36,314 nucleotides of DNA from Jimgerdemannia flammicorona (lineage: Eukaryota), in NCBI GenBank assembly GCA_003990765.1, contig RBNJ01000224.1, forward strand, positions 1 through 36,314, read 5' to 3'. Positions 10,546 to 36,314 of the stretch are shown here, in pieces. Every line of letters starts with the position of its first letter. Position 1 is the stretch's first letter. The position numbers and the translations under genes were made by a program. Below the pieces are notes generated by a model that ran no database searches, was not told the origin of the DNA, and saw nothing but the letters and a program-made list of their open reading frames with translations.

Positions 10546-10575
10546 CTTTGATTAAAAGTAAAAAAGTAAATATTT

Positions 10576-12404
10576 TTATTTATTGACAGCATAAATTAGT
10601 TTTAGATAAGTAATATCTTTGAATTTATTCTGAACAAAGAGATGAATATTGTGGTAGAGGTACTCCTAGTATTTTAATTATATAGGAAGAGGCTTAAGTA
10701 CTGAAAATGACAAAGTTTTTATTTTTTCTATAATTTGAAAAGTTGGGGATTTACTAGTCTTTAATAACTTGAATTTCTGAAAAAGACTATTTACAGCTTC
10801 TTGGACTTTCACAGTACTTAAATTAACTCTAGTGAAAAGAAAATATTGAAACTTTTATAAGCTAAGTAATTTTTTAAAGTAAGTTTCTAGACCACTTATA
10901 ATGTTAAAATATTGAAAACCTTCATCATCATTATAACATTAAGCTTTATTTGGTCTAGTAATGCTAGATCTTTTTATCAAATCAATAATATGATCTATAT
11001 AATCTACTATAGTCTTATGATAAAGTCTTTTAATTAATCTGAAGCTACCATCATCTTTGAATTTAGTATAGTCCAGAACTATAAAGTTCAATTTAATACT
11101 TTCATAATAACTAATAATTATCAGATATAGATAAAATCAAAGAGTAGTATTATTTTTATTTTATCTATCTGTATTATTGTATTTAAATATTTCTCACCTT
11201 TATTTAATTGTTTAATTCTATTAAAGATCAGACTAAGTATACTATTTGGACTCTTTCTAAATAGTTCATTTTTATCTAATATATAATTAATTTGCTCATA
11301 TACTACTTTATCTTAGATACTAAACAAATGTACTTTATAAGTACTAAGATAATATACTTTATTAATCTATTGATCTGAATGAGATATATAGATATTTTGT
11401 ACTCAATTATAGCTATAATGAGCCACCATATTAATACTATAATATAGTATCTCATATTTTGCTATAATAATAGAATAATTTTAGTCAATTAGCTCTCTCT
11501 GTTTTTTTATCAACTTGGTGTTTTTGTTATAATAGTTTTATTCTAATTTGGCTTTAGTAAGATGCTCTTTATATCTTTTTAATAAATCCTGAGTCTCTTC
11601 TTCTTTATGAGTTTTAAATTATAAGTCATTCTATAAGTATTGGTAAGTATTATATAAATCAGTTTTAGGGCTTATGATTTGGATATATGGAGTCAACTGA
11701 TGCTATAATTTATAAAACACATTATATTTAAGAACATTCAGAAAAGTGCTATCTTTTAGATCAGCTAAGAAGTTATAGTGAATGGACTTATAACTCATTT
11801 CTACAGATAAAAAGATAATTAATTGGGTAACTCAATTAATATTTCTCACTGAACTGGGTGAACCATAAACTTTGGTATAATTTATGAGAAAATTCTTAAC
11901 CATAGTAAGTATATCTTTGTCAATAACCATCTTGATTTTTTACTAGGATATTCTTTTTATATTACCATAGAGCTATGATAAAAAACCATTATTTAGCAAA
12001 TAATTTCTGATATTTTTAAAATAAGTTTGATCAATTTTCAGCATATTTAAATAGGTTTTCTGGAAAAGAGATGTATTATAATTCTAGTATAGATAGTTCT
12101 CTTATTAGCTTAAGCCCTATTCTTGAGATATCAACTAATATTGATCACTTCTCTATCTATGACTTTGAATTGAGCTATCAAAAAGATATCTTGTTCTAAC
12201 TTAGAGAGAACTTAAAAGGCTTTATGCATCTCAGCAAATACTTTCTTGGAAACTTTAGCTGAGTATCTACAATTATATCTTATTTTTAAAAAATAAAGTA
12301 TCTTCTCATATTTAGTTACATTTTTATCATTTATTATATATATATATATATATTATATACAGTTTGTCTGGTTTTGTTAAATTTCTTATATACAATATAC
12401 ATAC
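10576..12404 (-). pseudogene. DDE transposase, Sola1-like, copy A (central and C-terminal part)
   Basis: Eroded motifs AHYSYN(W)VQNI, VYYLSTYKVHLF, QINYILDKNE, (DN..GQ)NKNN, LNFIVLDYTKFKDDGSFRLIK (consensus GHTKF..D..FGLIK) and C-terminal YLYHNI..FV..KDIT. Stop at 10576-10578. The superfamily call rests on recalled motifs. Confidence 0.75.
12335..12352. repeat. (TA)9 microsatellite
   Basis: Directly visible. Confidence 0.9.
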
Positions 12405-14002
12405 TGTCATGTAATGGTCACTGAGTCCTTCAAATATATCAGATTCTCTTTAAGATATATCTCTTAGACTAACTCAAGTTTTGTTATAAGTAAGTTCTTA
12501 TTGGAGTACCTTTCCAAGATCTTATAGTTCTCAAACTTCATATCTTTAAACTGTCTTGTTATCTTAAATTACTTGTAAGAAATTATATATATTACACTGA
12601 GAGGAACTGACTTTATTTCAGAGAAAATAAGAGGGATATTTATATAAAATATAATTCAATAATTGCTAAGATATAAGACTAAATATAAATTCCAATAACT
12701 AAATAAAATACTGGAATATAGAAAACTGCCAAGTTTGAGTATTAACATAGATAGTTGTATAAGTTCAGAATACTAGTATAATTTTGGTAGTATAGAAAAA
12801 GAGTACTAGAATAATTCTAAGTTATATAAGGTCAGAGTACCAGTAGTGGAATAGCAGTTATATAGAAAAAAAATATAGATATAATTTAGTATAATCTAGA
12901 GCAGAATGTTCAGAACTATGGAGACTTCATCCTCATTAGAGGTCAGGATGTCTTGGTAGAAGATAAGATCAGCTTCATCTATTTTGTATACTTTATTATA
13001 CATTTTGTATATATTGTACTCTTTGCATACTTTACACTCTTCATACATATTGTACAAGATGACATCATTATGGATGACATCATTATGTTTGACAGGAAAA
13101 TTAGGGGCTCTCCAATCTATGAGGTTCTCTTTTACAAAATAGAGAATGAATATAAGATCTTAGAGAGGTCTGATCTGAATACTGAGGCCTTAGAATATAG
13201 AGATCAATTCTTGCAAGAATTGATCTAAGTTGTCCTGGAGGATGGGATATCAGAACTCTTCTATCTCATTACTATTAAGAGTGATAGTAGACTGGACTTC
13301 TGTTATCACTCTGACTTTTAGTATATTGATATAGTGGACTGACAGATCTCTGAAGTCTGTGACTCTAGTATACTCTAAGTTAGGAGATTGACCATAGTGC
13401 ATATCTGAAGATCTGATAAATCTTCTTAGCTATTCTTGTTTTATATATATCCATGGGAGTGGCATCTTGTTATTCTTGAGGGCTAGTCTGAGGGAACTCT
13501 CAGTAGAGAAGGTTTCCTATTTTATACTCCTGCCATATTTAGAGGTATTTGGTAGTAATGGTGATCCTTATTTCTATTTTGTAATAGTAGAAGATAAAGC
13601 AATAAAGATCTCCAGTATCTAGATTGAGGCTAGGAGTTCTTCTTATATGGGTCCTCATGGCTCTTCTGATATCTTAGAACATCCTTTCTTCAACTGAGAA
13701 GCCTTGATGGTTTCTTGATCTTATGATTTGGCAAGCAGCAGATATTTTATTTATAGTAAGTCTTTGAGCTATTTTGGAATTAGTGGGTCTTGTTGAGTTA
13801 CTACTACTGCAGTTTCTTGGTCTTTCTTTTATATTTCTCAAGATATCTGCCCTGTAGTCACAATGACTCACAGTTGATCATCATTACTTATCTTATAGTC
13901 TGGGTAAGTCATACTATATGATCTCTTTGTACTCTGATCTAGTGGCTTGTAAGGAAAGGCTGTCTCCTGTGCTAATGTCATTATTCTGAAGTCACTATTA
14001 CA
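12405..14002 (-). repeat. 3' LTR of the Gypsy element (~1.6 kb)
   Basis: TGTCA...TTACA termini. Direct repeat of 19622-20171 plus 26050-27097. Confidence 0.93.
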
Positions 14003-14351
14003 TCTTTCTCCTAAATATGAATCTTTTCTTATATGTTCTTATTTATTGATCTAATCTAAAAAATTTGCTGATCCCATAACCTCTGGCAGAGAGTTGAAAA
14101 GTGGTATTTATAGGCTGACATCTTTCTTATGTTTTTGGTATGATAGTGAAGAGTCACTCTCTTCATATAGAGTAAGGGCCTGATTCTGATCTTGACCAAT
14201 CAGTTAATAGTTAGAACTCCTCTGGCTTTAAAAGTCTTATGAATAAGTAGTTGCTAGTACTATATCTCTTAGAGAATAGTCTAGACAGATTGCCTGTTGG
14301 TTACAAAATATGCTGTTATAATTTATGAACTAAAACCTCATAGGCAGTCAT
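12900..14351 (-). pseudogene. Putative accessory ORF3 of the Gypsy element, running from the end of pol through the PPT into U3
   Basis: The frame from ATG 14351 is in phase with ORF 13674..13871. It continues (one indel in this LTR, absent in the other LTR) through KTRIAKKI.QIFR...IPNLEYTRVTDFRDLS to HEEYKVCKEYNICEMHNKVHEIDEAD. All stops are explainable by C>T/G>A changes. Confidence 0.55.
14003..14012 (-). promoter_or_regulatory. Polypurine tract (AGGAGAAAGA)
   Basis: Purine run immediately before the TG start of the 3' LTR on the minus strand. Confidence 0.75.
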
Positions 14352-14369
14352 TATGTTTTGCTTCTCTTA

Positions 14370-15560
14370 TATAGATTCATAGTACTTCTTGAGTCTGTTC
14401 CTATATATCATAGTAGGCAGTATGGTTCCTAAGAGTTTTCTAAGCCAGAAGGTAGTTTTCTTGATATCTTACATATAGAAGGGTCCTTCTCATTTGGGCT
14501 CTAGTTTTCATAACTATGAGGCTTCTATCATATTTTGATATAGTAGGACCTTTTCTCTAATTTGGATGGGTTCTAGAGTCTTGTAATTTTTTTCCACATT
14601 CTTCCTTATTAGTGCTTGTAACTTGATGGTATAATCTTTAGCCTTCTTTCTGATTTGATATAGTCTCCAGATTTCTAAGTCAATCTGTCTCTAAGTTAGG
14701 TCTAGATTTATAACTGAGATTCCATCAGAATCTTCTTTTCTGAAGAGCAGTTCTCTTGGGGTAAAGTGTGTACTCTGTGACTATATATCTCATAAGACAG
14801 AGAGAGTAGTTGGGAGGTAGTTATCCCAATTCTTATATATATTTGAGATCTTTGCCAGGATATTCTTAAGGGTCTTGTTGGTCCTTTCTGTTTATCTATT
14901 TCCTTAAGGATGGTATATAGTGGTCTTGATATACTGAATCTTATATTTCTGATACATTATTTCATGGAATCTATTGACAAATTCTGTACCACAGTCTGTA
15001 GTGATTTGCCTTGATGTCTTGTAGCAGCAGATAATTTTTCAGTACAGAAAGTTGGCTATAGAGAGAGCATTGACTTCTTATAATGCTTCTACTTCTATCT
15101 ATTTAGTAAAGAGGTCTATAATAACTATAATGTAGTGATTTCCTAATAGTGTTACTGGTAGTGATCCAATGATATCTATTGCAATGTAGTGGAAAGAGAT
15201 TGGCTCAATTCTTGATAACCTGGGTGTCTGATCTTGCTGATCTTATTTCTGTTTTTGGCACTTATCATACCCTTTGACAAATTGACACAGATCTTCTTCT
15301 ATCTTGGGCCACTATATAGTTCTTCTTGCCTTATTATATATATTGATTCCTCCTAGGTATCCTTGTTTATATACTTTCTTCATTACTTGATACTTCTTAT
15401 GTTCAAGTATTATAAGCTTTTCTTCTTTTCTGAGTGTAATGTTGTCTAGTTCAAATTGTTTCTAAGTCTGGTTGATGATAGTGATAGTCTAGGGTTCAAG
15501 ATGATTAGGCATCTTCTACTGCCTAAGATAGCTGATTAATCTATAGTATAGCTCCTTATT
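14370..15560 (-). pseudogene. Gypsy integrase (zinc-binding domain, DDE core, GPY/F)
   Basis: IAIDIIGSLP, YIIVIIDLFTK, TTDCGTEF, YHP.GN..TERTNKTLK, EGPFY and NRLKKY. Confidence 0.9.
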
Positions 15561-15589
15561 CATATTAAATAGTCTTGATGGAGGTATTT

Positions 15590-16800
15590 TGGGATATCTT
15601 TGAGAGTGCATCAGCATTGATATTGATTCTTCCTGAGCAGTGCTTGACAGTATAGTCATACTCTTGTAGTATCTGATATATATTCCTTTGTGGTTCAGTA
15701 TGTGGAATAGTCAGGCAAGGGCAGAATGGTCTGTTGAATGGTGAAGTATTTCTCAGCCAGATAGTAGTAGAACTTATCTACTGCCCAAACTACTACTAAG
15801 TATTCAAGCTTATATGACTCATAGTTCTGTTCTGCTCTATGGATATCTTGGTTTATATAGGAGATAACATATTCATGTCCATCTTTCTTCTCAGCTAGGA
15901 CTGCTCCAAGTCCTATAGTACTTGCATCTGTCTGCAGGATGAACTCTAGATTTCAATCTGATCTTCTGAGATAGATGTTTGGATCAATCTGGTCTTGAGT
16001 TCATTAAAGATTTCTTGGTACTTCTTGATTTATTCAAACTTGGTCTCCTTCTTCAGTAGCTCATAGATAGGTACTATAATATTGGAGTATCCTTTGATAA
16101 ATCTTCTATAGTAGGAGACCAGTCCAAGGAAGACATAGACTTCTATTGTTATTCTGGATCTTGAGTAGGCTACAACAGCCTCAATCTTTATAGAGTCTAT
16201 ATGGATTCTGGTCTGGTTGATAATGTGACTTAGGTAGGTAATTTCCTGAATATTTCTTGGACTTGATATAGAGGTCATACTCCTTGAATCTCTTGAGGGC
16301 TAGCTATATATAGTTGATATATTCCCTTATAGTATTGCTGAAGATGATCACATTATCAATATAGATAAAGAGCCATTTTCCAATCTCATTACTGAAGACT
16401 CTGTTCATTATTTACTGAAAACTTGCTGAGATATTATATATTCCAAATAGTATTCACAGATAGATGTAGATATTATCAGGTGTGATGAAGGCTAATTTCT
16501 CACTGGCATCTTGAGTGAGGCCAATCTGATAGAAGTCTGAGAACAGATCCAAGGTAGTATAGTATTTGGCTTCATTTTCAAGAGTAGTAAGAATTTTCTA
16601 AATATTCAGCAAAGGCTGCCTATCCTTCTTAGTAATTGCATTGAGCTTCCTATAATCAATACAGAGTCTTAGAGCAAACTCTCCAGGCTTGCTTCCTTTC
16701 TTTAGAGCAAGGACAACAGATAAAGCCTAAGGACTGATAGCTTGCTTGATGATTCCAGTTCTGCTCACAGCTATTCTTTGTAGGCAGGTGGTATGGGTCT
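15590..16800 (-). pseudogene. Gypsy reverse transcriptase and RNase H
   Basis: IDYRKLNAITKKD, LDLFSDFYQI, LYIDNVIIFS, FLGLVSYYRRFIKGYS, QTDASTIGLGAVL, DHSAL and NADALSK. Confidence 0.93.
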
Positions 16801-17034
16801 GGCTTTCTGGTAGATGTACTTGGTATCATCAGTATTGACTTCATAGTAGTATTTAGATTCTTGATTGTGGATATCTCTGAAGTCTGTAGTAAGTACTCCT
16901 TCATTCTAATATAGGATTTTAAGAAGTTGTTCCTCTAGGGGAAAGTTTTCTCTAATGGTATATGTGTACTTGTTCTGGTCCTTTTCTTTCTTATACTCAA
17001 GTTTGGTAATCTTGGTAGTAGTATAGACTCCTCT

Positions 17035-17445
17035 TCCAGTAGATCCAAAGCCTTGTTCTTCTCTCTTAGTCTTGATGAGTTTGATGACTTTAGTGATTTG
17101 GGCTTCTTGACTTTGTGGATCAGCATCTGGCCAATCCTGTCATACTTCTTGATTTTGAATAGAGTGGTGGAGTTGTGATTCCTGACTATAAGGAAGATCT
17201 CACCAGTATAATTAAAGTCAATAACTTCTCCTTTAACTGGGATTTTGCTCTTGATCAGACTGCTTCTAGTCTTGATAATTCTGGCATAGTTCTCTGATAA
17301 CTTGACTCCAATTCCAGTACTAAGTAGAGTAGTGATCTGTAGTTTGAGAGTAGTATCTTGAATACTGGTAAGGTCTATTCCTATGACTCCTTCAGTCTTA
17401 TATTCTGGGATTTTGGCTTCAGGGTAAAACTTCTTAACTTTGAGA
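17035..17445 (-). pseudogene. dUTPase domain within Gypsy pol, between protease and RT
   Basis: All five trimeric dUTPase motifs in order: KIPEYKTEGVIGIDL (I), KTRSSL (II), VIDFNYTGEI (III), DRIGQML (IV) and REEQGFGSTG (V, after one frameshift). Confidence 0.9.
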
Positions 17446-17829
17446 GTAATATCTAGTTCTTATTCCTCCTCATCATCACTATCAGCTTGAAGCTCTGGAG
17501 ACTGGTCATCTTCTTTGGCTTTCTTTTTTACTTCAGCAGCTTCTTGCTCATACTTTTGTTGGTAGATTTTTCTGACTTTACTGATATAGGACTAGTAGTC
17601 ATTCAGGTATTCAGAGCAGTACATCTTAGTATCATGGGGATATCTTCCTTGAGGAGCATAGCCATTGATGATCTTGTTGTACCACTGCTTATCTATAAGC
17701 TTAGATGTCTTACTCTTATTCTTGTTCTTATTCATGAAGACTTCTGTATCCTCTTCTATGTCTGATAGAACTTTTTTGTAGATATTGATAGAGACTTATA
17801 TCTTTCTTTCTCTATAGTTGATTTGTATC

Positions 17830-18150
17830 TTCTGGACATTGAGATCAATAATAGCCTTGGTCTTGTGAAGCCATTGGTTACTAATGAGAATGTCATAGTT
17901 AGTGCTACTTATAACAATCATATCTACTGGAATTGTAGCTTCTCCTATCTTGATGGAGACTTCTCAGATTTTGCCTAAGAGTGTAGCTCAGATACCATCT
18001 GCTATAATATAGATCATCTTAGTAGACTCTTTAATATCCCAGCCTAGATGGTTAATTATCTTCTTACTCATGAGGCATCCTCCAGCACCAATATCAATGA
18101 TGGCATCAAAGATATAATCTTCAATCTGATATGGGGTATAGACTGATGTC
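17830..18150 (-). pseudogene. Gypsy aspartic protease
   Basis: FDAIIDIGAGGCLMS (eroded DTG) and downstream YDILISNQWL..TKAIID. Confidence 0.85.
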
Positions 18151-18199
18151 TTACACTAATCTTCAAATTCTTTACCTAAGTCTTCTTAATTATCTTCTT

Positions 18200-19560
18200 A
18201 TGTATTGTGAGCTTCTATGATCTTATACTCTTGGTTTTTTACTATAGTTGTAAGTCCCACTCTTAACTACTATCTAAAGGCAGAGACTTCAGTTAGTTGT
18301 CTAAAAGTAGCATTGACCTTCTATTTCTTGAGGTCCTTATAGATATTATACTGATAGATCTTAGTCTTGCACAGCTTCTGTTCTTTCTTGCTTTCACTTT
18401 CTCCTGAGACTGGAGTAGTACCTTCAATAATTTGGCAGGCAGTTTTGTCTAACTTTATATCTTGATCAATCTTCTCAGATTGGGTCTTGCTTTGAATAGT
18501 AATAGCTGAAGTCTTCTTTAGTCTTCTAACTGGCTTACTGTTGCTCTTCTTATCATAGGACTTAGACTGGGTTCTAGTACCTTCAGTGAAAAAGTAAAAT
18601 TTAGACTTCTCATAGTATTCTTCATTATTAGTATCACTAATTTCCTCAATAACTACTATATTTATTTATTCTCTGGTTCTGGTAACATTACTTAGTTGGA
18701 CTTTGTGTCTTGTTTTGATCATACGACTCTTTATATAGTAGTCTTCTTCTCTACATCTGAAGTATGTGATATTGTGTTCTTTTATAGTAGCTACAAATCT
18801 CTGTACTGGTCTCCTATTAGTGCTTCAGACTTCTCTAACAATATTACTAAGATATATAGTTATTTCAGCAAACTACTTGGTGAGTTCTTTTACTGGGTCA
18901 GCTTTGGCTATCTTAGTGATAGGTGGGGATAGTTGTCTGTTTACAACTATGATAGGTATGATATTGATTTGTTTTGGCTCCATCTTGATACTAGTAATTT
19001 GCTCTATTAAGTATTCAGTAGAGTATCTAGTAGTTCAATATCTCTATGCAAAGACCACTTTCTGGTCAAGGATTAGAGCAGCTAGAGTAGACCAGATTGC
19101 TAGGGCAATTTCAGAGTGAACTCCTTTAAAGAAGGTTGAATCTGCTATTTGTTCCTTGAGAGCATCATTATAGCCAGCCAAGATAATCTGGTGGCAGATT
19201 TAGTTATAGAATGAGTTAGGATCTTCACTGAGTCTCTGGCAGATAGTGTTGAGTTGATCCTTGAGAGCTTGCTTGATCTCTTCAATATAGTATATTATTC
19301 TGAAGAAGACCTTCATGTTGGCAAGTTTGGCTATACCAGCATCAGTAATAGTGGCTATATTGAACTTGTCTCTAGCAGATCCTCTGAGGCTAACTGATAG
19401 AAGGACTAATTGTGCATCCATAGTAAGAGCTTATATACCAGCAAATTGTTCAAAGTCTTCAATGAAGATCGGGATTGACTCTTTAGTAATATATCCATAG
19501 AATATAGAAGGACATATTTCTATTTTATCTTAAATTCTTATAGGGGTGACTTTTGTAGTC
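18200..19560 (-). pseudogene. Gypsy gag
   Basis: Capsid-like FIEDFEQ...SLRGSARD...ICQRLSEDPNSFY, and an eroded CCHC knuckle (YFRCREEDYYIKS) near 18720-18765. Position between PBS and protease. Bounds approximate. Confidence 0.8.
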
Positions 19561-19605
19561 AGAATAGTTATTGTGGGAGTTATTTGTTTTTCAGCTTGAA
19601 AGTGA

Positions 19606-19618
19606 GGAATGAGTACCA
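19606..19618 (-). promoter_or_regulatory. Primer binding site (TGGTACTCATTCC)
   Basis: TGG begins 3 nt after the CA end of the 5' LTR on the minus strand. The cognate tRNA was not identified. Confidence 0.7.
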
Positions 19619-19621
19619 AGT

Positions 19622-22600
19622 TGTCACATAGTGATCACTGAGTTCTTTAAATATGTCAGATTCTCTTCAAGATATATCTCTTAGACTAACTCAAGTTTTG
19701 TTATAAGTAAGTTCTTATTGAAGTACCTTTCCAAGATCTTATAGTTCTCAAACTTCTTATCTTTAAACTGTCTTGTTATCTCTTAGATTGCTTACAAGAA
19801 ATTATATATATTATATTGAGAGGAACTGACTTTATTTCAGAGGAAATAAGAGGGGTATTTATACAAAATATAATCTAATGATTGCTAAGATATAAGGCTA
19901 AATATAAATTCCAATAACTAAATAAAATACTGGAATACAGAAAACTGCCAAGTTTCAGTGTCAGCATAGATGGTTGTATAAGTTTAGGATACTAGTATAA
20001 TTTTGGTAATATAGAAAAAGAGTGCTGGAATAATTCTGAGTTATATTAAATCAGAGTACTAGTGGTAGAATAGCAGTTATATGGGAAAAAAATGCTGGTA
20101 TAATTCAGTATAACTTAGAGCAGAATGTTCAAGACTATGGGGGCTTCATTCTCATCAGAGATCAGAATATCCAAGGAGTGTTAGACCTTTCTCAGTTACC
20201 ACTCATGTTACATATACTTTTACAATACACTTTCAAGCATTTATTGGAGAAAGGTACTAAGGCAATAGCAACCAACAAGTAAGCTGACATATTTACTAGG
20301 TTGGGTGGACCTGAAGCCTTCAACTGGCAATATATTAGATGTGGATATAAACTATAAATAGGGACATTCAGTAGTCTGAGTGAATAGGGCAGTTCAGATA
20401 GTAGTAGTAGTACTGGAGATAGAGTAGGAGAGCAGAAGGAGAGGAGCTTTGCAGATATATTGAAGAATAGTGGATGGCTTATGAGATCTCATAGAGGATA
20501 GATGGAGAGGAAGAGAAAGCAGAGAGAAGAAGAAGTAGGAGGTACTAGACCTCTGCTAGTAGAAAGAAGAGCTAGTAGTGATATAGCTGGAAATCTAGAA
20601 AAAAATCCAGATGTGACTGCTGATGGGAGGGCTGGGCAGATGGGTTCAAAGAGGAAGAGAGATCTGGCTGATATTGTGATGGGGCTGGTGGTAGCACTAT
20701 TACTCAAGAAGTCAATCTCAGAGTTTGCAGCAATCTTGTGCTTCTGAGGCTTAGCAGTGATAGCAAGGATGGTTCTGGGGATTATCTCAGAGTAAGTGGC
20801 TGGGGTAGCATTGGTGAAATTCCTGAAGGAACTGGAAGAGGTTGAGATGAGATTTGAGGAGGTAATCCTACTGGAGGAAGCTTTGAAGACTGAAGTGGTG
20901 GTAGAAGAGGTAGTAGTCCCTATGGTGTAGTGTTTGAGGTAAGACCCCAGGGTGGTTTAGTTGCTGGTGAAGGGGGTGTCTACAGTGACAAAGGTTGAGA
21001 CTAGGAGGAGGATAGAGGAGGTAATGGTAGAGTATAGTGATATGGTCAATATTAGATTTCAGATATATAAGGGGACTACTTTCTGAATAGGAGATGTTGA
21101 TGTCAGAATTAGACTGGCAGAAAGAGAGGCTACTGGGAAGCTGAGTGACTGGCCTTCAGTTATGATGTAGAGGGCCTTCATCTGTAAGGTATCAAGGGTG
21201 AAGAGGAGTGAGGAAGAGGAGAAGGATCTGCTGAAGACTCTGGAGGAGATGAGCAGAGCAGTTGAGTAGAGGGCAAAGGCCTGGAAGATGTATGAAGAGA
21301 CAATACATTTGGAAATTGTGGATAAGAAGTATATTCATATAGATAAGAGGTAGTGAGAGAGGGCTCAAGGGTACAAGAGACAGAGAGAGTTATTGACAAG
21401 TATGGATAGAGAGATGAAGAAGAAGGCTGATAGAGCTGTAAAGGCTGGAGAAGCTGAGATGAGTATCTGGACTAGTAAGAGAAGAGGGAAGAGAGAGGAA
21501 GATCTAGATGGGGCTGGGAAGATGCCAGGCAGTGATCTATATACTGATGGTATATTCAAGGTCTGAGAAGAGGAATTGGATGATACTCCTCCTCCACTTA
21601 TCAGGAGGGGTCTAGCTGGGAAGAGCAAGGCAGTGAAGGATGTACTGATGCATAGTGCCCAGTAAGTTCACATTAGAGTTCCTGATATAGCAAAAGGGGA
21701 ACAGGTGGTAGCAGTTGGTAAGGATGAGCTAGTGGATATCTCAGAGGAGAGGTGGGATAAGACTACAAGTATAAGAACTAATACTATAATGCTGGATATT
21801 AGGAGGTCAGCAATACCAGGAGGGAAGGAGGTAGGGAACCTACTGTAGATGTATCAGATGATGAATAACTTTGCAGCTGAAGAGTTGGGAGAAGTGGACC
21901 TAAGAGTAATGAGCAAGAAGCATTGGGCACAGATTCTGTATAGAGATAGAGTGATAGAGATGCTGAAGATAGAGGTCCTTATAATTCTTCTGAAGGATGA
22001 GGGGTATGAGATTGATAAGAAGAGGGAGGCTGAGCTAGCTATTGTTGCTAGTGAGAGGGCTGCCTTCTATTGGGTAGACCATTATGGACTAAAACTCTAG
22101 CAGAAGGCCTACCTGGAGTATCATGAAGAATTTGAAGAAAAGGAAGATAGGGAGATGGCTGAACTTCTGGTTGGATTGGAGATAAGGGAGACTGAAGAGG
22201 AGGGATTGGCTGCTGAATGTAACTTGGACATAGCTCAGAAGGCAGACTTGTAGAGGATAAGTAGAACACTACTTATAGATATTTTTCCAATGAATAGTAT
22301 AACTAATATTTTTTCTCTGAACATAAATAGATTATAGGGATCTGGGTGATAGAAGAACATTTTCACTTAGCTAAAGAGATTGGAGGCTGATCTCTTTCTA
22401 CTGTAAGATATATAGTGTGAGGGTGAGGAGGATCAGATAGAGTGGACTAGAGAATGGAGAGAGGCTACTGCTTAGATTGGCAAAGTGATAATTCTGATGA
22501 GAAAAGGTAGAGGAGATTTGGATAGTACTAGGAGCTGGAGGGACCATTTGATCTGGGGAGAATGGCATTAATCTGGGTGGGAGCCAGTAAGAGTTGGCTC

Positions 22601-25600
22601 TTGCTACTGCTCTATAGCTAGGGGTGAGCAGATTATATGGATTAGGAATCTTTTAGAGGAGAGCATTCTCTTGGAGAAAGGAGTTGATATTCTGGAAGGT
22701 GACTTTAATATGGTGTGGAATCTTCAGTTAGATAGAACTGATAGAGGAAAGAGTGCAGAGAGGAAGAGTAGTGGTCTGGATACATGAGAGGAGGTGGAGA
22801 ACCTTAGCTCCTTAGGAGATATGGGCAGAACATAGTGTAGAGAAAAGAGGGTCTATATACACTAGGTGAATGAACTGAGTATGAGAATTAATTGGATTCT
22901 AACAGCCAAATACTGGGGCATAGATGTTTGGAAGACTCTGAAGGTAGAGTAGTATCTGTAGTCTGATTACTGGAGGCTATTAGAGCAGGAGTAGTTTGGG
23001 AGGAGTGGAGATAGACCCAGACATTGGCATTTTAACTCCTTTCTGCTAGCTGAGAAAGTATTGTGGGACCTATGGGTGGAGGACATTCAAGTGAAGATTG
23101 CTAGCTAGATATGTAAGGGTTCATCTGTAAGTATCTATTGAATGAAGTTGAAAGAGACTGTGAGGGTTTATTGGAGAGAGACTGGTAGGGATACTGAGAG
23201 GCAGAGAAGAAATAAAGTTAGATATACTTCAAATCAGTTAATTAGATTACAGATAGAATAGGCAGATTTGATATCTTCTGAAGAGATAGGTGGATGGAGG
23301 TTAGAACAAGCAAAATTGAAGATAGTAGAGCTGCAACAAATACTGAGAGAGGAGGAAGAAGTATATATGAAAGGAATGGCAGTCAGGCTGAGGTAGCAGG
23401 AGCTTGAGGAGGAGAAGAGGCCTACTAAGTACTTGTCAAGACTCCTTCAGGCCAGCAGGATGCAGCATCAATGAGATGGGGTTCTGGATGTAGAGAGGAA
23501 AATAGTACATAGTATGTAACAGATCTTGGAGATATAGAAGGAGAGGTAGAAGGGTCTGTGGAGTGAGGAGGAAGGGGGTGAGGATGAGGAGGCAATTGGA
23601 GACATGCTAGAGGATTGAGATCTGCTATAAGTAGAGGGTATTAGTGACTTGATCCTACTAGTCCAAAAGGAGGAGATCTAATAAGTCCTTGTAGCAACTA
23701 AGCTTGGGACAGCACCAGAAGAGGATGGGTTACCTTGGGACTTTTGGAAGAAGATAGTGAAGATTCCTGGAGTGATAGGAGAGATGATAGCTCTCTGTGA
23801 CTATATTCTTCTGAATGGTGAGTGGGTTGGTGAGCAGAACTTGGAGTTGGTGGCCTTATTATATAAAGACAAGGGAAGAAGGGAGAACTGGAAGAACTGG
23901 AGACCAATCATGCTTCTGGATATAGACAGGAAGATAGTGACCAAAGTGATTGTTGTAAGGCTACAGAAGATTGCCCAACAGATACTGAGTGAGGAGCAGT
24001 GGGGCTTTTTTGGAGGCAGGCTTATCAGAGATGGAACTGCCTGAGTTTATGGCATTATTGAAGAAGTATGAACTTGTGGATTAGATAGAAGACTGGTCTT
24101 TTTAGACCAGAAAAAGGCCTATGACCACATTCAGTGGGTGTGGCTGGATAAGATACTAGATAGAATTAGTGTTCTCTCAAGATTTCAAGCTTCTATATTA
24201 AATTTGTTAGAGGGAAGTAGGACAGCACTGATGTATAATAGTCACCAGGGTCTAGTATTTCCATTGGAAAGAGGAGTTCCTTAGAAAGATCCATTGTCTC
24301 CTATCCTCTATGCTTTTTTATTAGAATTTTTAATAGATAGGATATGACAGAAGATGGCAGAGCTCTCTATATATGATATGGTGTGGAAGGTGGGGGCCTT
24401 TGTAGATGATATGGTAGTTGGACTTGGCTTAGTGGTGAATGTTGAGGTACTTAAGGAGATAGTGGAATGGTATGAGATATACTTTGGGGTGAGACTTAAC
24501 TGGCATAAGTGTGAGATGATGGCACTGGAGACCAGGTTAGTGAAAGGAGATGTCATTGGAACAATTGTCCCTACAGGAGAGGCAGTGAGGTATTTGGGTA
24601 TCTTCCTTTTTATATATGGTTCAGTCTTATCATGGGTGTGATGAGAGAGGAGGGTAGCTATTTAGGGAGAGACTCTTAGAGGTTGAAGAGGTCACCACAT
24701 CTCCCTAGTAGGCTGGATATCAATCCTGAATATCTACTGGTTCTCCAAGCTGTGGTATATTGCTTATCATTTGGACTTTTCAGCTTGGGTAGTGAAGAGA
24801 CTGATGAAACTGGCTAGAGATTGGATTTGGGTAGGGAGGTGGTCTCAGATCAGTTGGGACGCTCTTGCAACACTGGTGGTTTGGGGAGAGCTAGGCCTAG
24901 TGGATTTTCCTAAGAGGCTGTATTGCCTGCAAGCTTGGTGATTGAAAAGGGCTGTTGAATTACAGGGAGGAGACTGGGTACTACTGATACAGAAGGTGTA
25001 AGAGATGAGATTCTCTCCATGAGGGTCCTTGGCAGATTTGTTATCTCTAGTGAGTATAGATGGAAGCTGATGACTATGGTATAAGGGCTTCTGGTGAGGG
25101 GTGGTAGATAGAGTACACCAATAGACCTATACTGGTAAAGTAATAAGAGGAAGATGCTGTGGGGTCCAGCTATGTGGTAATAGAACAGACTGTTTCTGAG
25201 AGATATTCCACTTACTGAGTTTGATATTGGTGAAGGAGTAGAGTATCAGTGGGGACTTGGTCAGGATCTATGGCTAAGTAGTTGGCAAACAGTGAGAATT
25301 GATAAGGAGTAGGACTGGGCAGGAGTCTGATCATAGAGTGCTGAGATATGGAGGTAGCTTTCTCCCAAGTTCTGAGTGGTATGATGGCAAATACAGTAGA
25401 GAAATATCATATTGAATTTCTGTACTGGATATCTGGTAGATGGTAGATGACTAGATTGTAAGGAGTATTATAATATAAAGTAAGTTAAGAGATTTTTACA
25501 GATACCAGAATATTGACTGAGAGAGTGTAAGGTTCTGAGGAACTTTTGAATAGTAATAGAAGACCAGACGGGTGTAGAGAGGAGGCCAGATGGAGAGAGA

Positions 25601-26004
25601 GATCACTGGGAGGATTTGAAATCTCAGTTAGTAGGTGGTGTAGACAATGGATAGCTCACTATAGGGTGGGTTCTAGCTGAATGGGTAGGGCTGACTGAAC
25701 ATTAGCTCTTTGTTTTTGAGGAGAGATATGTAGTAGATAGATATACAGGAGAAGTTGTTAAGATGGGAGGGATTGATGAGAGATTTGCTGACTGAGTAGT
25801 GGGTTGGTTGGAGTCCCCAGAGTGGGTGACACCACTATCTGGTAGAAGGGATCTGTGAACAGAGTGGACAGATAGTGATAGTGAATGATAAAGTGGTCTT
25901 TCATCAAGAGAGGGTAGGGAGGGGGGGCTCTAGGGAGATTAGGTAGGGGTGAGTATAGTATGTTATATAGAGAATAGATAGTATATTAATAAAAGAAGGA
26001 GTCT

Positions 26005-26035
<31 letters not shown>

Positions 26036-27097
26036 GAGATCAGGATATCTTTGAAGGAGATGAGATCAGCTTCATCTATTTCATGTACTTTATTGTGCAT
26101 TTCACATATGTTGTACTCTTTGCATACTTTGTACTCTTCATGCATATCATGTGGGATAATGTTATCACTGATGATGTCATCACATTTGGTGGAAAAATCA
26201 GGAGCTCTCTAATCTATGAGGTTTTTTTCTACAAAATAGAGAATAAATATAGAATCTTAGAGAGGTCTGACCTAAATGCTGGGGTCTTGGAATATAGAGG
26301 TCAATCCTTACAAGAATTGATCTAAATTATCCTGGAGAATGAGATACCAGAACTCTTCTACCTCATCACTATTAAGGGTAATAGTGGACTGGGCTTCTAT
26401 TGTCACCCTGGCTTCTAGTGCATTGATATGGTGGGCTGACAGATCTCTGAAGTCTGTGACTCTAGTATACTCTAAGTTAGGGATTGACTATGGTATATGT
26501 CTGAAGATCTGATGAATCTTCTTGGCTATCCTTATTTTATATATATCTATGAGAGTAGTATCTTATAATTTTTGAAGGCTGGTCTGAGGGAACTTCTGGT
26601 AGAGAAAGTTTTTTATTTCATACTCCTACTATATTTGGAGGTATTTAGTAGTAATAGTGATTCTTTTTTCTATTTTACAGTAGTAGAGAATAAAGTAATA
26701 AAGATCCTCAGTACCCAGGTTGAGGCTAGAAGTCCTTTTTATATGAGTCTTTATGACTCTTCTGATGTCTTAGAACATTCTTTCTTCAACTAAGGAGTCT
26801 TAGTGGTTTCTTGACCTTAAAGTTTAGTGAGTAGCAGGCATTTTTTTTATAGTAAGTCTTTGAGCTATTTTGGGATTGGTGGGTCTTATTGAGTTATTGC
26901 TACTATAGTTCCTTAGTCCTTCTTTTATATTCTCAAGATGTCTGCCTTATGGCCACAATGACTCATAGTTGGTCATTATTACTCATATTGTAGCCTGGGT
27001 GAGTTATGCCATATGATCTCCTTATATTCTAATCTAGTGGCTTGTAAGAAAAGGCTATATCCTATGCTGATGTCATTATTCTGAGGTCACTGTTATA
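19622..27097 (-). repeat. 5' LTR of the Gypsy element, split into 19622-20171 and 26050-27097 by a LINE insertion
   Basis: Both pieces align end to end with 12405-14002. Candidate TATA box TATAAATA (minus) at 19856-19863. Confidence 0.92.
20172..26035 (+). mobile_element. Full-length LINE copy 3 (same family as copy 1), heavily mutated
   Basis: ORF1 remnant ~20266-22260. ORF2 remnant 22290-25946 (NWRPIMLLDIDRK, DQKKAYD, AFVDDMVV, VRYLGI). AATAAA followed by A27 (26009-26035). TSD AGAGATCAG(A/G)ATATC at 20157-20171 and 26035-26049. Confidence 0.95.
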
Positions 27098-30141: not shown

Positions 30142-30816
30142 TGATATCACAAGTTCACTTTGTCTAGTTTTGTTGCAGCATGCCCTATATGATAATATAA
30201 TATCTAGGAAAATATATGAGGCATACTGCATAGTGCTCCGAATGAGTCAATCTGGATGGAATTTAAATCCCATCTGGATGGATTCGAATCAACCATTGTT
30301 TTGATTTCCAAATTAGACAATTAAATATTTACATCAATAACTTGATGAATAATCATCCAAATTTGATGATCTTGGTGTTATCTGAAAGCCCTTAATAAGG
30401 TCTTTCTAATGATACCAAGTACATTAAAATAAGATTACGTGTTGCCGAGATATTGAGGAAAACATTCTCTTTGACAAAATTTTCAAAATCAGCAATTCAG
30501 ACGGTTTCTTTCATAACTCAGCAATACATAATCCGATTTCAATGTTCTTAGTATCATTAGATAGGCCTTATTAAGGGCTTTCAAATTACACCAAGATCAT
30601 CAAATTTGGATGATTATTTATTGAGTTATTGATATAAACATTTAATTGTCTAATTTGGAGATCAAAACAATGGTTGATTCGAATCCATCCAGATGAGATT
30701 TGAGTTGATCTGGATGGGATTCAATTGAAATCAATCTGAATCCAATCTGGATTAAATTGACTTATTAGGAGCACTAGTGCTGCAACAAAACCAGACAAAG
30801 TGAATATTTGACATCA
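30142..30816. repeat. Small palindromic (hairpin) element, ~120 bp when reconstructed, interrupted by a MITE
   Basis: 30142-30180 (TGATATCACAAGTTCACTTTGTCTAGTTTTGTTGCAGCA) is the near reverse complement of 30778-30816. Confidence 0.75.
30231..30776. mobile_element. Non-autonomous hAT-type MITE with long inverted arms
   Basis: Termini TAGTGCTCC...GGAGCACTA. Inverted arms of ~200 bp (30268-30465 vs 30505-30703). 8-bp TSD ATACTGCA (30223-30230) / GTGCTGCA (30777-30784), both one transition from ATGCTGCA. Confidence 0.8.
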
Positions 30817-31199: not shown

Positions 31200-32337
31200 A
31201 TATAAATTTATAATAAAAATATAATCAATAAACTCTAAGAGAGAAATAAAGAATTATTAAATCAAACTAAACAATTAAAAGCACTATTATAAGTTAAGCA
31301 ATTAAATAATGAAGAAATTAAATAAGAGATAACTAAATATTTAGTGAATAGATATATTACTCATGATCCTGATCTAGCAGTAGTTAATGAAATTGTTCAA
31401 ATTAATAATGAAGAATATTGACCAAGACTTTGCAAGAATTATTCAGCTGAAAGTTCTTTGTAAGGATATATTTGCTTGCTTTATCAATATATTCAATATT
31501 ATGATGATTGATTTAAATACTATAATGAAATAAATAATACTAAAAAAGATATTTTCTCTACTCTACAAGGTTTAGATTTAGAAAAAAGTAAGAAATTATT
31601 TAAAAATGAATAGAAGAGGATAAGATAAAAAAGAAACCATTTGAAGAAGACCAAAGAGAAGAGTTTAGAAATTGTAATGATCTTCATAGTATTTCTCTTA
31701 AAGATATGATAAAAGATATTACTAAATAAACTGTAAAATTTAAAAATAAATATAAAAGTTTCAAAAAAACTATTGAAGAACTTTTATTAGATTATTCTGA
31801 ATTAATAGAAGAGGATATAGAAAATGAAAGAGCTTATTGATTGGAAGAACCATCATAAAAATTATTAGAGAAAATCAAAAATAGTAAATTAGATAAACTT
31901 AATGAGGTTATTATGAGAATTAACAAGAAATAGGAAGAAGATACCAAAACTCACTTTATCTCTTTTACTGAAATTAGCAAGAAATAGAATGATAAAAAGA
32001 AAGCATCTTTAAAAGAAAAAATTAAAGATAAGTCAAAATTGTTGAAAAAAGAATATGAGAAAAATACTATTCAGAAAGTCAAGATTAAGGAACTTCAAGT
32101 AGAATTATATAAGCAAAAAGATTATTAGCAAAATAGTATAAAAAAAACAAAACTCAAGAAGTAGAAAAAGAGAACTTACAAAGATAATTATATTTATTTA
32201 AAAAAGCTTTATCTAAAATACTAAGCAAGTTTAAAATATTAGGAATAAAAATAAAAAGTAAATTTTTACAATTATCAGAAAAAGTTAAGTCTCAAACTTA
32301 GGAAATAGTTGCTTGGATAGAAGTTAAGACTAAGTAA
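31200..32337 (+). pseudogene. Cargo gene 1, copy B (MRE-like coiled-coil protein)
   Basis: YITHDPDLAVVNEIVQINNEE...KPFEEDQREEFRNC...KSQT*EIVAWIEVKTK-stop (32335-32337). Start position uncertain. Confidence 0.65.
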
Positions 32338-32572
32338 TAGTGAGAGAGTTAATTTATATAATCTTGAAATTGGAAGAGTAGAATAGAGAGAATAATTATG
32401 ATTTTTACTCTTACTTTAAAAATAGTGAAAATAAATCTGCTTGTCAAATCAGAACTTATAGTAAAGTAGCTGGTAAAATAATTGAAAATGACTGTATATG
32501 TGAAAACTGTAAAGAAAAGTTTTTAAATAGTAAATTACTTAAATGTGAAAGATATAGAAGATTAAAAACTAA

Positions 32573-34473
32573 CATTCGGACCTTTCACTCGGACCAAACA
32601 GTTGGCTCTGCATCTAAGCCACCAGGATGGTGAGCTTCTTAAGTTTTGGAGGCCACAAATATAGGCTCCAAGGAGTGCCGACAGGTGTACCTCATCCCTT
32701 AGGTATAGGAGTCCCACCTGGTCTTTTCGGCATAGCCATAGCTTCTAGTTTCAGCAAGTTACAAGGATTTCAAGAATTTCGAGGCAAGATGGGCAAAATG
32801 ACACAGGCAAGATGGGCAAGATGGGCAACATGGATAACACGGGCAACACGGGCAAGACGGGCAAGACGGGCAAGATGGCAAGATGGGCGACATGGGCAAG
32901 ACGGGCAAAACTGGCAAAACGACACAGGCAAGACAGGCAAGACAGGCAAGACGGGCAAGACGGGCAAGACGGGCAAAACAGGCAAAACAGACAAGATGGG
33001 CAACACAGGCAAGACGACAAGACGGGCGACATGGGCAAGATGGGCGACATGGGTAAGATGGGCAAAATGGGCAAAATGATATGGGCAAGACCAGCAAAAC
33101 GGGCAAGATGGGCAATACGGGCAAGACAGCAAGACGGGCGACATGGGTAAGATGGGCAAAACAGGCAAAACGACAGGGCAAGACCGGCAAAGCAGGCAAG
33201 ATGGGCAACACGGGCAAGACAAGATGGGCGACATGGGCAAGATGGGCAAAACGGACAAAATGACAGGCAAGACAGGCAAGATGGGCAAGACGGGCAAGAC
33301 GGGCAAAATGGGTAAAACAACACGGGCAAGACTGGCAAAACAGGCAAGATAGGCAATACGGACAAGACGGCAAGACAGGCGACATGGGCAAGACGGGCAA
33401 AACAGGCAAAATGACAGGGCAAGACTGGCAAAGCGGGCAAGATGGGCAACATGGGCAAGACAAGATGGGCGACATGGGCAAGACGGGCAAAACGGGCAAA
33501 ACGACAGGCAAGACGGGCAAGACAAGCAAGACGGGCAAGACGGGCGAGACAGGCAAGATGGGCAAGACGGGCAAGATGGGTAACACGGGCAAGACGGGTA
33601 AGATGGGCAAGACGGCAAGATGGGCGATATGGGCAAAACAGGCAAAACGACACGGGCAAGACGGGCAAAACGGGCAAAATGGGCAAGACGGGCAAAATGG
33701 GCAAGATGGGCAAAATGGGCAAAACGAGCAAGATGGACATAACGGGCAAGATGGGCATAACAGGCAAAACAGGCAAGATGGGCAACATGGGCAAGATGGC
33801 AAGATGGGCGACATGGGCAAGATGGGCAAAATGGGCAAAATGATATGGGCAAGACCGGCAAAATGGGCAAGATGGGCAACACAGGCAAGACAAGACGGGC
33901 GATATGGGCAAGATGGGCAAAACGGGCAAAATGACAGGCAAGACAGGCAAGACGGGCAAGACGGGCAAGGCGGGTAACATGGGCATGACGGGTAAGACGG
34001 GCAAGACGGCAAGTCAGGTGACATGGGCAAGACAGGCAAAACGGGCAAAACGACACAGGCAAGATGCAGGTAACATGGGCAAGATAGGCAAGACGGGCAA
34101 GATGGCAAGACAGGCGATATGGGTAAGATGGGCAAAATGGAAAAAATGACATAGGCAACCGGGCAAGACAGGCAAGATGGGTAAGATGGGGAGGCACTAA
34201 TAGGGGTAGGCCAGGTGCACTAGATACCAAGTACTTGAGGTGGTTGGGGCTCACAACCCATACCCACTCTTGGGTGGGGCAGACTGGGTAGGAGGATCTA
34301 GTTACTCGGGCAGTGAGGTCGCAACTCACATCCTAAAGGTGCTTAGATTGTTATTGGTTTGGAAATTGTAGTGTGAGAGTAGGGTGGGGTGAGATGCAGA
34401 ATGTGGCTGCTGGTATGGCATGAGGATTTTAGATAGTTAATAAATGGGGCTCCGGCCTATAGAGGAAAAAAAA
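32573..34473 (+). mobile_element. Non-autonomous poly(A) retroposon containing a ~1.4-kb VNTR
   Basis: Perfect 17-bp TSD AGAAGATTAAAAACTAA (32556-32572 and 34474-34490), AATAAA at 34439-34444 and an A-tail from 34466. No RT or endonuclease coding capacity. Confidence 0.85.
32781..34190 (+). repeat. Minisatellite/VNTR, 9-bp unit GGGCAAGA(C/T) with variants and higher-order blocks
   Basis: Directly visible. It produces the repetitive GKT/GQD/ARR and LPV/CPS ORFs in all frames. Confidence 0.97.
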
Positions 34474-34907
34474 AGAAGATTAAAAACTAAACTGAATTTT
34501 GACTTTCAGATTAATAAATATATTTGCTATTATATTAGACATATTGAAAATACAGAGGAAAAAGAACTTTCACTTTTACTCAATAAAGAGATAAGTCAAT
34601 TAGCATTTTATAAAAGATAGATAAATGCTTTATGAGAAAAAAAACAGATCAATTAGCAGTAAAAGTAGATACTCATCTTGAAGTCTTGGGAGTTATTGAA
34701 AACTGGCCTAAAAAACAGAAGTAAGACTTATTAGATAGAATAAAGATATTAGAAGCTGAAGTAGCAAGATTAAAAAAGCTAACTTCTTAAGAATTAGTCA
34801 AGAAAATTAATAAGTTAAAAGTCCAATTAGAGTAATAAAATAGTCAATTTATAACTTAAATTGAGGTTAAAAAGTGATCTTGATCAAAAGTAAAGAAGTA
34901 AATATTT

Positions 34908-36314
34908 TTATTCATTGATAGTATAATTTGGTTTTAGATAAGTAATATCTTTTAATTTATCCTAAACAAAGGGGAAAATATTGTGATAAAGGTATTCCTG
35001 ATATTTCAATTCTATAGAAAGAGGTACTAGTACTAGAAATGACAAGATCTTGATTGTTTCTATAACTTTTAAAGCCTCAGATTTATTAATTTTTAATAGT
35101 TTGAATTTTTGGAATAGACTATTGGCAATTTCTTATACTTTGACAGTATCTGAATTTACTTTGATAAAAAGAAAATGTTGAAACTTTTATATATCAGACA
35201 GCTTCTTGAAGTATATTTCAAAACTACTCACAATGTTAAAATATTGAAAACTATCTCTGCTATTATAATACTATACTTTATTTAATTCAGTAATACTAGA
35301 CATTTTTACTATATTGACAATATGATCTATATATTCTACTATGATTTTACAATAAAGCCTTTTAATTAGGCCAAAACTGCTACATATCATATTTAAATTT
35401 GATATAACTTGGAACCATAAAGTTCAATTTAATACTTTCATAATATCTATAAATTGCCAAATATAAATAAAACCAAAGAGTAGCATTATTCTTGTTTTAT
35501 ATATCTATCTATATTATTACAAGTGATTTTTAAGTACTCTTTATCTCAGTTCAATTGCTTAATTCTATTAAAGACTAGGCTAAGTATATTAATCAGATCC
35601 TTTTTGAGAAGTTCATTCTTATCAAAAATATAATTAATTTGCTCATAGACTACTTTATCTTAGATTCTAAACAAATGTACTTTATGAGTACTAAGATAAT
35701 ATACTTTACTGATCTGTTGATCAGAATGAGGCATATAGACATTTTGAGTTCAGTTATAACTATAATAGGTAATAGTATCAATACTATAATATGATATTTT
35801 ACCTTTTATTATATTGATAGAATAATTCTGATTGATCAGCTTTCTGTATCCTTCTACTAGCTTTGTATTTTTATTATAATAGTTTTGCTCTAATTTGGCT
35901 TTGATAAGATGCTCTTTATATCTCTTTAATGAATCCTGGATCTCTTCTTCTTTGTAAGCTTTGAATTGTAAGTTATTCTATAAATATTGACAAGTATTAT
36001 ATAAATCAGTTTGGGGGCTCATAATTTGGATATATAGAGTCAACTAATATCACAATTTGTGAAATATATCATATTTGAGCATATACAAAGTACTATCTTC
36101 TTCTAGGCTAGCTAAGAAGTTATGGTGAATAGACTTATAGCTCATTTCTGTAGGTAAAAAGATAATTAATTAGGTGACTTGATTAATATTTCTCACTAAG
36201 CTAGGTGAACCATAAACTTTGACATAATTTATAATAAAATTCTTGACTATAGTAGCCATATTTTTGTCAATAACTATTTAGTTTTTCACTGAGACATTCT
36301 TTTTACATTACTTT
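34908..36314 (-). pseudogene. DDE transposase, Sola1-like, copy B (partial)
   Basis: Homologous to 10576-11965. KITCNNI...KNKNNA and LNFMVPSYIKFKYD..SFGLIK. Stop at 34908-34910. Confidence 0.75.

Follow-up and report, generated by a model that had tools for sequence, protein, structure and literature searches.

A non-coding insertion with a nine-base tandem-repeat core and an SVA-like layout in a CpG-depleted eukaryotic contig

Results

A discrete insertion beside an empty copy of its target

The window analysed here is a stretch of 36,314 nucleotides, positions 1 to 36,314 of the forward strand of contig RBNJ01000224.1 (GenBank assembly GCA_003990765.1, Jimgerdemannia flammicorona). Our subject is a 1901-bp insertion on its plus strand (32573-34473), which has a GC content of 0.53 compared with 0.22-0.25 in the flanks. 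A first-pass annotation, made from the letters alone, had read this interval as an SVA-like retroposon with a unique head, a 1.4-kb variable-number tandem-repeat (VNTR) array, a unique tail, poly(A) and a 17-bp target-site duplication (TSD). The same layout was recovered by Tandem Repeats Finder (TRF), self-BLAST and a repeat scan, and its parts, together with a paralogous site that lacks the insert, are the following.

32556-32572, plus strand: 5' copy of the TSD, 17 bp, AGAAGATTAAAAACTAA (sequence reading, repeat scan)
32573-32782, plus strand: unique head, about 210 bp, balanced base composition, 5 CpG (sequence, composition count)
32783-34190, plus strand: VNTR core, built of GGCAAGACG units, higher-order repeat of 241 bp (TRF, self-BLAST, motif scan)
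34191-34465, plus strand: unique tail, about 275 bp, G-rich and C-poor, with a run of four T (T4) at 34427 (sequence, composition count)
34439-34444, plus strand: polyadenylation signal AATAAA, 21 nt ahead of the A-tail (sequence reading)
34466-34473, plus strand: A-tail, 8 A, or 9 with the first TSD base (sequence reading)
34474-34490, plus strand: 3' copy of the TSD, 17 bp, AGAAGATTAAAAACTAA (sequence reading, repeat scan)
10170-10187, plus strand: paralogous empty site, a single diverged target copy ACAATTAAAGACTAGAAT with no insert (self-BLAST, sequence reading)

The two copies of the TSD are identical at 17 of 17 bases and lie exactly at the two boundaries of the element; with the VNTR excluded, they are the only direct 17-mer repeat in the whole window at a spacing of 500-7000 bp. 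Duplications of the type left by target-primed reverse transcription (TPRT) flank an insert with about 4-20 bp, a range that includes the 17 bp found here. The run of A extends over 34466-34474, its final base doubling as the first base of the TSD, and the first nick, located by way of the A-tail, falls on the bottom strand at 5'-TCTTCT/ATAT-3'. The DNA that received the insertion is itself repeated. In a self-BLAST comparison, 31347-32571 and 34709-36311 match 8985-10183 and 10377-11965 at 77-78% identity, and it is in this second copy that the target occurs uninterrupted. Because the TSD, the AATAAA, the A-tail and the uninterrupted paralogous target are found together, 32573-34473 is a discrete insertion made by TPRT. 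The first three of these features had been named as hallmarks of that process in the first-pass annotation, and the empty site at 10170-10187 adds support to the claim.

The host repeat family to which both targets belong is old, AT-rich and about 3 kb long, with copies at 8985-11965 and 31347-36311 that are 77-78% identical. It contains no open reading frame (ORF) of at least 100 amino acids under the standard code. Alternative genetic codes for these AT-rich flanks were set aside, since table 6 opens every frame and is hence uninformative.

A G-rich tandem array between unique ends

An ATG lies at 32627 in the head, which also has two T4 runs (32644 and 32724) and, within its first 40 nt, two occurrences of TCGGACC. 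The array that follows was resolved by TRF into 148.6 copies of a 9-bp period (32806-34135, consensus GGCAAGACG) and 4.2 copies of a higher-order period of 241 bp. Self-BLAST sets its limits at 32782-34190, so that some 150 units, or about 1.4 kb, account for 74% of the element. When the whole window was scanned with a two-unit motif at up to 3 mismatches, all 120 matches fell within 32783-34186, compared with a shuffle mean of 0.28, and within the window the repeat is therefore confined to the element.

The sense strand of the VNTR is rich in purines (A 0.39, G 0.36) and contains little T (0.07). Non-overlapping quadruplex motifs of the form G3N1-7 number 10 on this strand and none on its complement, and only 4 were counted on both strands of the rest of the window. 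Judged by these motifs, the G-rich strand could form G-quadruplexes, and it is a matter of speculation that such a structure might aid capture by the machinery of a long interspersed nuclear element (LINE). In predicted folding stability, the RNAs of the head and of the three 3' ends did not exceed shuffled sequences (z from -0.64 to +1.47). A scan for promoters and terminators of bacterial type was set aside as meaningless for eukaryotic DNA.

Coding capacity and the type of transcript

The element is non-coding and non-autonomous, as had been proposed. Checks of ORFs, Pfam families, protein homologues and tblastx matches revealed no reverse transcriptase (RT) or endonuclease coding capacity, and no credible ORF. 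The sense frames of the VNTR contain 5-11 stops each, and the frame is shifted both by the 241-bp period, which is not a multiple of 3, and by recurrent units of 8, 13, 14 and 17 nt. All three antisense frames of the array are open for 410-469 codons, because the sense strand has only 7% T. A sense ORF of the element gave a match to Pfam Collagen (51.6 bits), which is trivial because of the GGC-NNN-NNN periodicity. A 55-amino-acid ORF in the head had three matches at E <= 1e-3 among 1.84 billion representative proteins, all of them multi-stretch low-complexity matches in long proteins, and the antisense peptide encoded by the tail had zero homologues in the protein search. The best tblastx match between the element and the resident LINE A, described below, reached an E value of only 0.008.

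The first-pass annotation had recognised no A or B boxes of RNA polymerase III (Pol III), and we likewise found no head of this type, with 0 Rfam matches at E <= 1 (no tRNA, 5S or 7SL/SRP) and 0 tRNAs by ARAGORN. A Pol III transcript is in addition unlikely because the T4 runs at 32644, 32724 and 34427 would stop this polymerase, the first of them already at 32644. On these two grounds a classical short interspersed nuclear element (SINE) of the Pol III class was rejected. Since the element lacks a Pol III head and combines internal T4 runs with an AATAAA and an A-tail, its RNA intermediate is most likely a polyadenylated transcript of RNA polymerase II (Pol II) type.

Related copies in public sequencing runs

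Contigs from four public sequencing runs (X1, X2, X4 and X6, chosen among 9 listed) were aligned with the element at a likeness of at least 80%. X1 is a soil metagenome, X2 derives from one organism and X6 is an RNA library; no contig exceeds 365 nt. One X1 contig (311 nt) matches the head over 32578-32780 with 6 differences, and its upstream 108 nt are unlike the present locus. Because this upstream flank differs, the contig appears to represent a second copy, which starts at most 5 nt from the same position of the head. Two more X1 contigs cross the junction of head and VNTR (32760-32866) with 10-12 differences. Contigs of the tail were found in X1 (0 and 3 differences), X4 (1 and 8), X6 (3) and X2, where 6 differences were counted at a word depth of 933 and a second variant shows 13 differences and 4 gaps. 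The two X2 variants, from within one run, are thus about 98% and 90% identical to the present copy. Two X1 contigs extend with about 18 further A past 34474, an X1 tail variant diverges after 34342, and another X1 contig shares just the last 45 nt or so of the tail (from 34430).

Some features of this material limit what it can be asked to show. As a possible sign of 5'-truncated copies, word depth in X1 was 21.7-35.7 for the tail contigs and 14.4 for the head contig, but contig depth is no measure of copy number. From X2, tail contigs and no head contig were aligned, a kind of gap that carries no weight; nor was use made of the lack of cover over the flanks (32300-32551 and 34484-34651, four runs) or over the head (X2, X4 and X6), since gaps prove nothing. 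In X4 and X6 the contigs over the VNTR pass into GC-rich sequence of a different kind, and this cover may stem from other organisms, and presence in the RNA library X6 is no demonstration of transcription. The register of the head-VNTR and VNTR-tail junctions differs among contigs, and this is the sole, and weak, basis for variability of the VNTR between copies. As a whole, the contigs support the existence of several copies and subfamilies with head, VNTR and tail, that is, of a family rather than a single retrocopy.

Resident LINEs

Three LINE copies lie in the same window.

1-5872, minus strand: LINE A, candidate relative of the mobiliser, younger copy, GC 0.53, 99 CpG, 3' end AATAAAGACGGAGTCCAAGGGACTATAAAA cut by the window start (self-BLAST, ORFs, Pfam)
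5873 to about 8990, minus strand: LINE C, distant relative, about 35% protein identity, collinear with LINE A (tblastx)
20172-26034, plus strand: LINE B, candidate relative of the mobiliser, full-length, CpG-decayed, with AATAAA and A26 (self-BLAST, sequence reading)

LINE A, whose 5' end was set at about 5872 by homology to the CAAGG start of LINE B, has an open ORF1 of 392 amino acids, and its RT and endonuclease pieces (ORF2) are broken by frameshifts. The RT piece matches Pfam RVT_1 (34.9 bits) and finds its best solved relative, weakly, in human L1 ORF2p (E 9e-4 to 2.5e-3); a taxonomic look-up of its matches returned Eukaryota only, including Rotifera, Mucoromycota and Chordata. Tx1-like, as the first-pass annotation had called these LINEs, is a putative label. 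The endonuclease piece, which had no Pfam match and no solved relative, is APE-like by eye only. ORF1 (4624-5802, minus strand) matched no Pfam family above threshold and has 6 homologues among 5.8 billion proteins (43-61% identity), none of them named and three encoded by a single 27-kb contig. With so few homologues, the lineage appears to be poorly represented in public annotation. An ORF1 pattern gave 19 matches in a viral contig collection, of which 0 were confirmed. LINE A is inserted in the older LINE C on the same strand (5868-5880).

LINE B, 65% identical to LINE A by self-BLAST, bears the same kind of insertion signature as the element. Its AATAAA precedes A26 by about 15 nt, and the flanking 15-bp TSD (20157-20171 and 26035-26049) is identical at 14 of 15 bases. 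The bottom-strand nicks, ATCTCT/GATG for LINE B and TCTTCT/ATAT for the element, both follow TCT, in a comparison of two insertions.

We compared the ends of the element with those of the LINEs, which the first-pass annotation had described as loosely echoing one another. The strings that it quoted are present, but the whole head and tail do not score above shuffles. When the terminal 40-45 nt were compared with the LINE termini, the empirical fractions were 0.023, 0.022, 0.025 and 0.063 relative to 5000 random windows of LINE interior; that is, the ends of the element outscore 94-98% of such windows. In base composition the tail (A.24, C.16, G.35, T.26) closely resembles the sense strand of LINE A (A.24, C.15, G.38, T.23). 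Within the window, neither head nor tail showed a match above chance. A Smith-Waterman search of the whole window produced one tail match above 60 shuffles (170 versus a shuffle maximum of 161), in LINE C, which was judged probably compositional, its site being collinear with the ORF2 region of LINE A. These comparisons are suggestive of mimicry of LINE termini by the ends of the element. LINE B has the insertion signature expected of a partner; the similarity of the element's ends to the LINEs of the window is weak.

The window also contains a long terminal repeat (LTR) retrotransposon of the Gypsy type on the minus strand (12405-27095), with LTRs at 12405-14000 and at 19622-20171 plus 26035-27095 that are 82-89% identical; LINE B, with its 15-bp TSD, is nested within one of them. 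The Gypsy interior encodes an RNase H at 15695-15952 and, at 16935-17459, a dUTPase domain (Pfam 69 bits) that matched phage-like dUTPases in the look-up. At 30265-30701, 437 bp match their own reverse complement at 84% by self-BLAST and so form a large palindrome.

Loss of CpG and the age of the copy

The element keeps 75 CpG, and its ratio of observed to expected CpG is highest for the VNTR (0.71), followed by the head (0.42) and the tail (0.20). LINE B has 2 CpG in 5.8 kb and LINE C 1 in 3.1 kb (observed/expected 0.01), LINE A has 99 (0.29), and the flanks (31347-32557 and 34491-36314) have 0 in 3 kb. The last two bases of 105 nine-base units of the VNTR are CG in 30 cases, TG in 48 and CA in 20, so that TpG or CpA occupies about two thirds of the CpG positions. 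Of 57 differences to other copies, 32 were listed, and these comprise 16 cases in which a CpG was lost in the present copy, 4 of the reverse and 12 others. Five of the 6 differences between the head and its X1 counterpart are losses of CpG in the present copy. The copy is young only relative to its neighbours, and it is visibly decayed. The claim that its CpGs are retained thus stands in part, and the inference of youth drawn from it stands as a relative one (0.71 and 0.42 in VNTR and head, compared with 0.01); the unmutated TSD, which had been cited for the same purpose, says little about age because it contains no CpG.

At the CpG positions of the VNTR, TG exceeds CA more than two-fold, which points to strand asymmetry in the array, either of the change from C to T or of the homogenisation of the units. 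Across the window the extreme loss of CpG points to a very strong C-to-T process, linked to methylation or resembling repeat-induced point mutation, because the flanks are free of CpG, LINE B and LINE C stand at 0.01, LINE B shares 65% identity with LINE A, which does bear CpG, and the head has lost CpGs relative to another copy.

Discussion

It is probable, in our judgement, that 32573-34473 is one copy of a multi-copy, non-coding, non-autonomous retroposon, built of a head, a 9-bp VNTR, a tail and poly(A), and mobilised in trans by a LINE. The mechanism that we propose begins with a source copy that would be transcribed by Pol II from about its first base. The RNA would be cleaved and polyadenylated about 21 nt past the AATAAA and then captured in trans by the ORF2 protein (endonuclease and RT) of a LINE of L1/Tx1 type in the same genome. 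A bottom-strand nick at 5'-TCTTCT/ATAT-3' would expose a T-rich 3' end that could prime reverse transcription on the A-tail, and a second nick, staggered by 17 bp, would generate the duplication. Slippage or unequal exchange might alter the length and composition of the VNTR between copies. Movement in trans by LINE enzymes is most likely; a resident LINE is suggested as the partner by co-residence, the same insertion signature and a weak terminal resemblance. By analogy with SVA, a "relaxed" capture that depends on poly(A) would need no more than this.

Several observations weigh against this interpretation. Searches for other copies by head and tail, as the first-pass annotation had envisaged, yielded contigs with the head-VNTR junction, tail variants and longer A-tails, but no second complete copy with its own TSD was recovered from the contigs of the four runs. 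All the evidence for a family comes from contigs of at most 365 nt, from metagenomes and one organism, in which strains or species are possibly mixed. The 108-nt stretch upstream of the X1 head could be a longer 5' part of the element and not a different flank, and the VNTR joints in the contigs are unreliable (likeness under 95). Exact scans with a tail pattern found 0 loci in the metagenome, viral and prokaryote-genome collections, as did a scan of the metagenome collection with a second tail pattern. As for the partner, LINE A and LINE B are both defective copies, and the comparison of nick sites is one of two insertions only. In local alignments of the whole head and tail with the LINE ends, 37-76 of 300 shuffles score equally well, and the end-anchored p values are marginal, the comparisons with LINE A and LINE B not being independent.

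Some of the same data could be accounted for if the element were an internally deleted derivative of an unsampled autonomous LINE, with the head as the start of the 5' untranslated region (UTR), the tail as the 3' UTR and the VNTR as an expanded UTR repeat. The element would then not be a composite of unrelated modules, although it would still be non-autonomous and moved in trans. The composition and purine skew of the tail do match the LINE sense strands, and the termini resemble their LINE A and LINE B counterparts (p 0.02-0.06; TCGGACCTTTCAC and TCGGACCAAACAG versus TAGACCTTTCTC and TCGACCAACATC; TAGATAGTTAATAAA versus TAGATAGTATATTAATAAA). Close to the 5' end stands an ATGGTGA reminiscent of how ORF1 begins in LINE A and LINE C, and the X1 contig whose similarity to the tail is limited to about the last 45 nt, with different sequence upstream, would also fit. 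Past the termini, however, none of the three LINE copies in the window is significantly similar to the element, none contains the VNTR motif, and the lone tail match in LINE C (170 versus a shuffle maximum of 161) is probably compositional. We regard such a derivation as unlikely.

Quite unlikely, in our view, is the possibility that an ordinary Pol II transcript of the host, either an mRNA or a long non-coding RNA, happened to contain a minisatellite and was turned by LINE machinery, once or a few times, into a low-copy processed retrocopy that forms no self-propagating family. The combination of TSD, AATAAA and A-tail is also the signature of processed pseudogenes, the head has an ATG and a 150-amino-acid ORF that runs into Gly-X-Y-like repeats, a sense ORF gave the 51.6-bit Collagen match, and the failure to recover a complete second copy agrees with this possibility. 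But the Collagen match follows trivially from GGC-NNN-NNN, the frame is broken by the units of 8, 13, 14 and 17 nt and by the 241-bp period, and there is no real protein homologue. Moreover, a head copy with another flank, the tail variants of X2 and X1, and the differences in A-tail length exceed what one gene and one retrocopy would provide. That no retroposition took place at all, and that the structure reflects DNA-level insertion or recombination beside an A-run with a chance direct repeat, or else an artefact of assembly, seems to us very improbable indeed. The A-tail is short (8-9 A) in A-rich flanks, so that an A-run alone is weak evidence, but the perfect 17-bp repeat lies exactly at both boundaries and is unique in the window, the paralogous target is single and uninterrupted, the AATAAA is at the expected distance, and longer A-tails are seen on other copies that end at this same point.

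The reading that we prefer, a retroposon family dependent on a LINE, invites comparison with the composite elements of primates. As described in PMC3287187, the hallmarks of SVA are insertion at TTTT/AA sites, a TSD of 4-20 bp, poly(A), 5' truncation and an AATAAA; its modules are a (CCCTCT)n hexamer, an antisense Alu-like region, a VNTR and a SINE-R; and its mobilisation in trans by machinery of the L1 type has been demonstrated experimentally. The VNTR composite class has been termed "specific to hominoid primates" in PMC4432496 and PMC7353768, in agreement with the statement of the first-pass annotation that SVA and LAVA are known from hominoids. The composite architecture itself is present here, in that a central VNTR is enclosed by a unique 5' and a unique 3' module and poly(A) closes the element. 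With SVA, LAVA, PVA and FVA the element shares a non-coding constitution, a length of 1-3 kb, a unique 5' module, a long G-rich VNTR, a unique 3' module, AATAAA with poly(A) and a TSD of 4-20 bp; movement in trans, which has been shown for SVA, would be expected here. It has no sequence relationship to any of the four. No (CCCTCT)n hexamer, Alu-like part or SINE-R is visible in it and there is no Rfam match to 7SL/SRP, and its VNTR is made of 9-bp units with a 241-bp higher order, whereas the VNTR of SVA has units of 36-42 or 49-51 bp. Human L1 prefers to nick at TTTT/AA; the nick here reads TCTTCT/ATAT, and the partner enzyme may have a preference of its own. The host, unlike that of SVA and LAVA, is an AT-rich, CpG-depleted, non-primate eukaryote. 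The element is thus no member of SVA, but it is built alike and most likely moves like SVA.

EhSINE1 of Entamoeba histolytica, as described in PMC2996970, is an element of about 0.55 kb with one to four repeats of 26-27 nt that is abundant, transcribed, polyadenylated and thought to depend on a LINE. Like the present element, it is non-autonomous, contains no plausible ORF and has an internal repeat whose copy number varies between copies. Polyadenylation was observed there, whereas here it is suggested by the AATAAA and the A-tail, and the one to four repeats reported for EhSINE1 contrast with an array of about 150 units that makes up 74% of the present element. The 3' end of EhSINE1 is common to EhLINE1, the endonuclease of which is of the restriction-enzyme-like type. 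The present element, in contrast, has no clear 3' end in common with the LINEs of the window, and their endonuclease piece is APE-like, by eye only. EhSINE1 is the nearest microbial analogue that could be documented. Processed pseudogenes share the insertion signature and the need for LINE proteins, but they derive from genes and lack self-propagating families, subfamilies and a defined 5' start, and the contigs argue for a family here. Pol III SINEs are likewise non-autonomous partners of LINEs; the present element differs from them in having no tRNA, 5S or 7SL head, a length of 1.9 kb, internal T4 runs and an AATAAA.

No VNTR-cored retroposon of a non-primate was found in the literature, most subscription journals and Repbase lying outside the scope of the search, and among 5 papers that use "SVA-like" no listed title or abstract deals with another taxon. 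We tentatively propose, while leaning slightly towards doubt, that the element is an independently evolved counterpart of SVA and LAVA in a non-primate, AT-rich, CpG-depleting eukaryote of soil samples, possibly a fungus. It would represent a recently active and possibly transcribed family, in which a quadruplex-prone core lies between ends that mimic those of LINEs and helps the RNA to compete for LINE proteins. In primates no mobile elements are younger than the VNTR composites, which also rank with the most mutagenic ones. If our proposal is true, the VNTR-cored class is a recurrent solution and not a peculiarity of primates. In annotation, such elements are easily mislabelled as minisatellites or collagen-like genes, which the match to Pfam Collagen illustrates. 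A convergent example would test whether a core of G-rich tandem repeats is itself adaptive, as a means of hijacking the machinery of LINEs, and a eukaryote so distant from primates would offer a second, independent system in which to study it.

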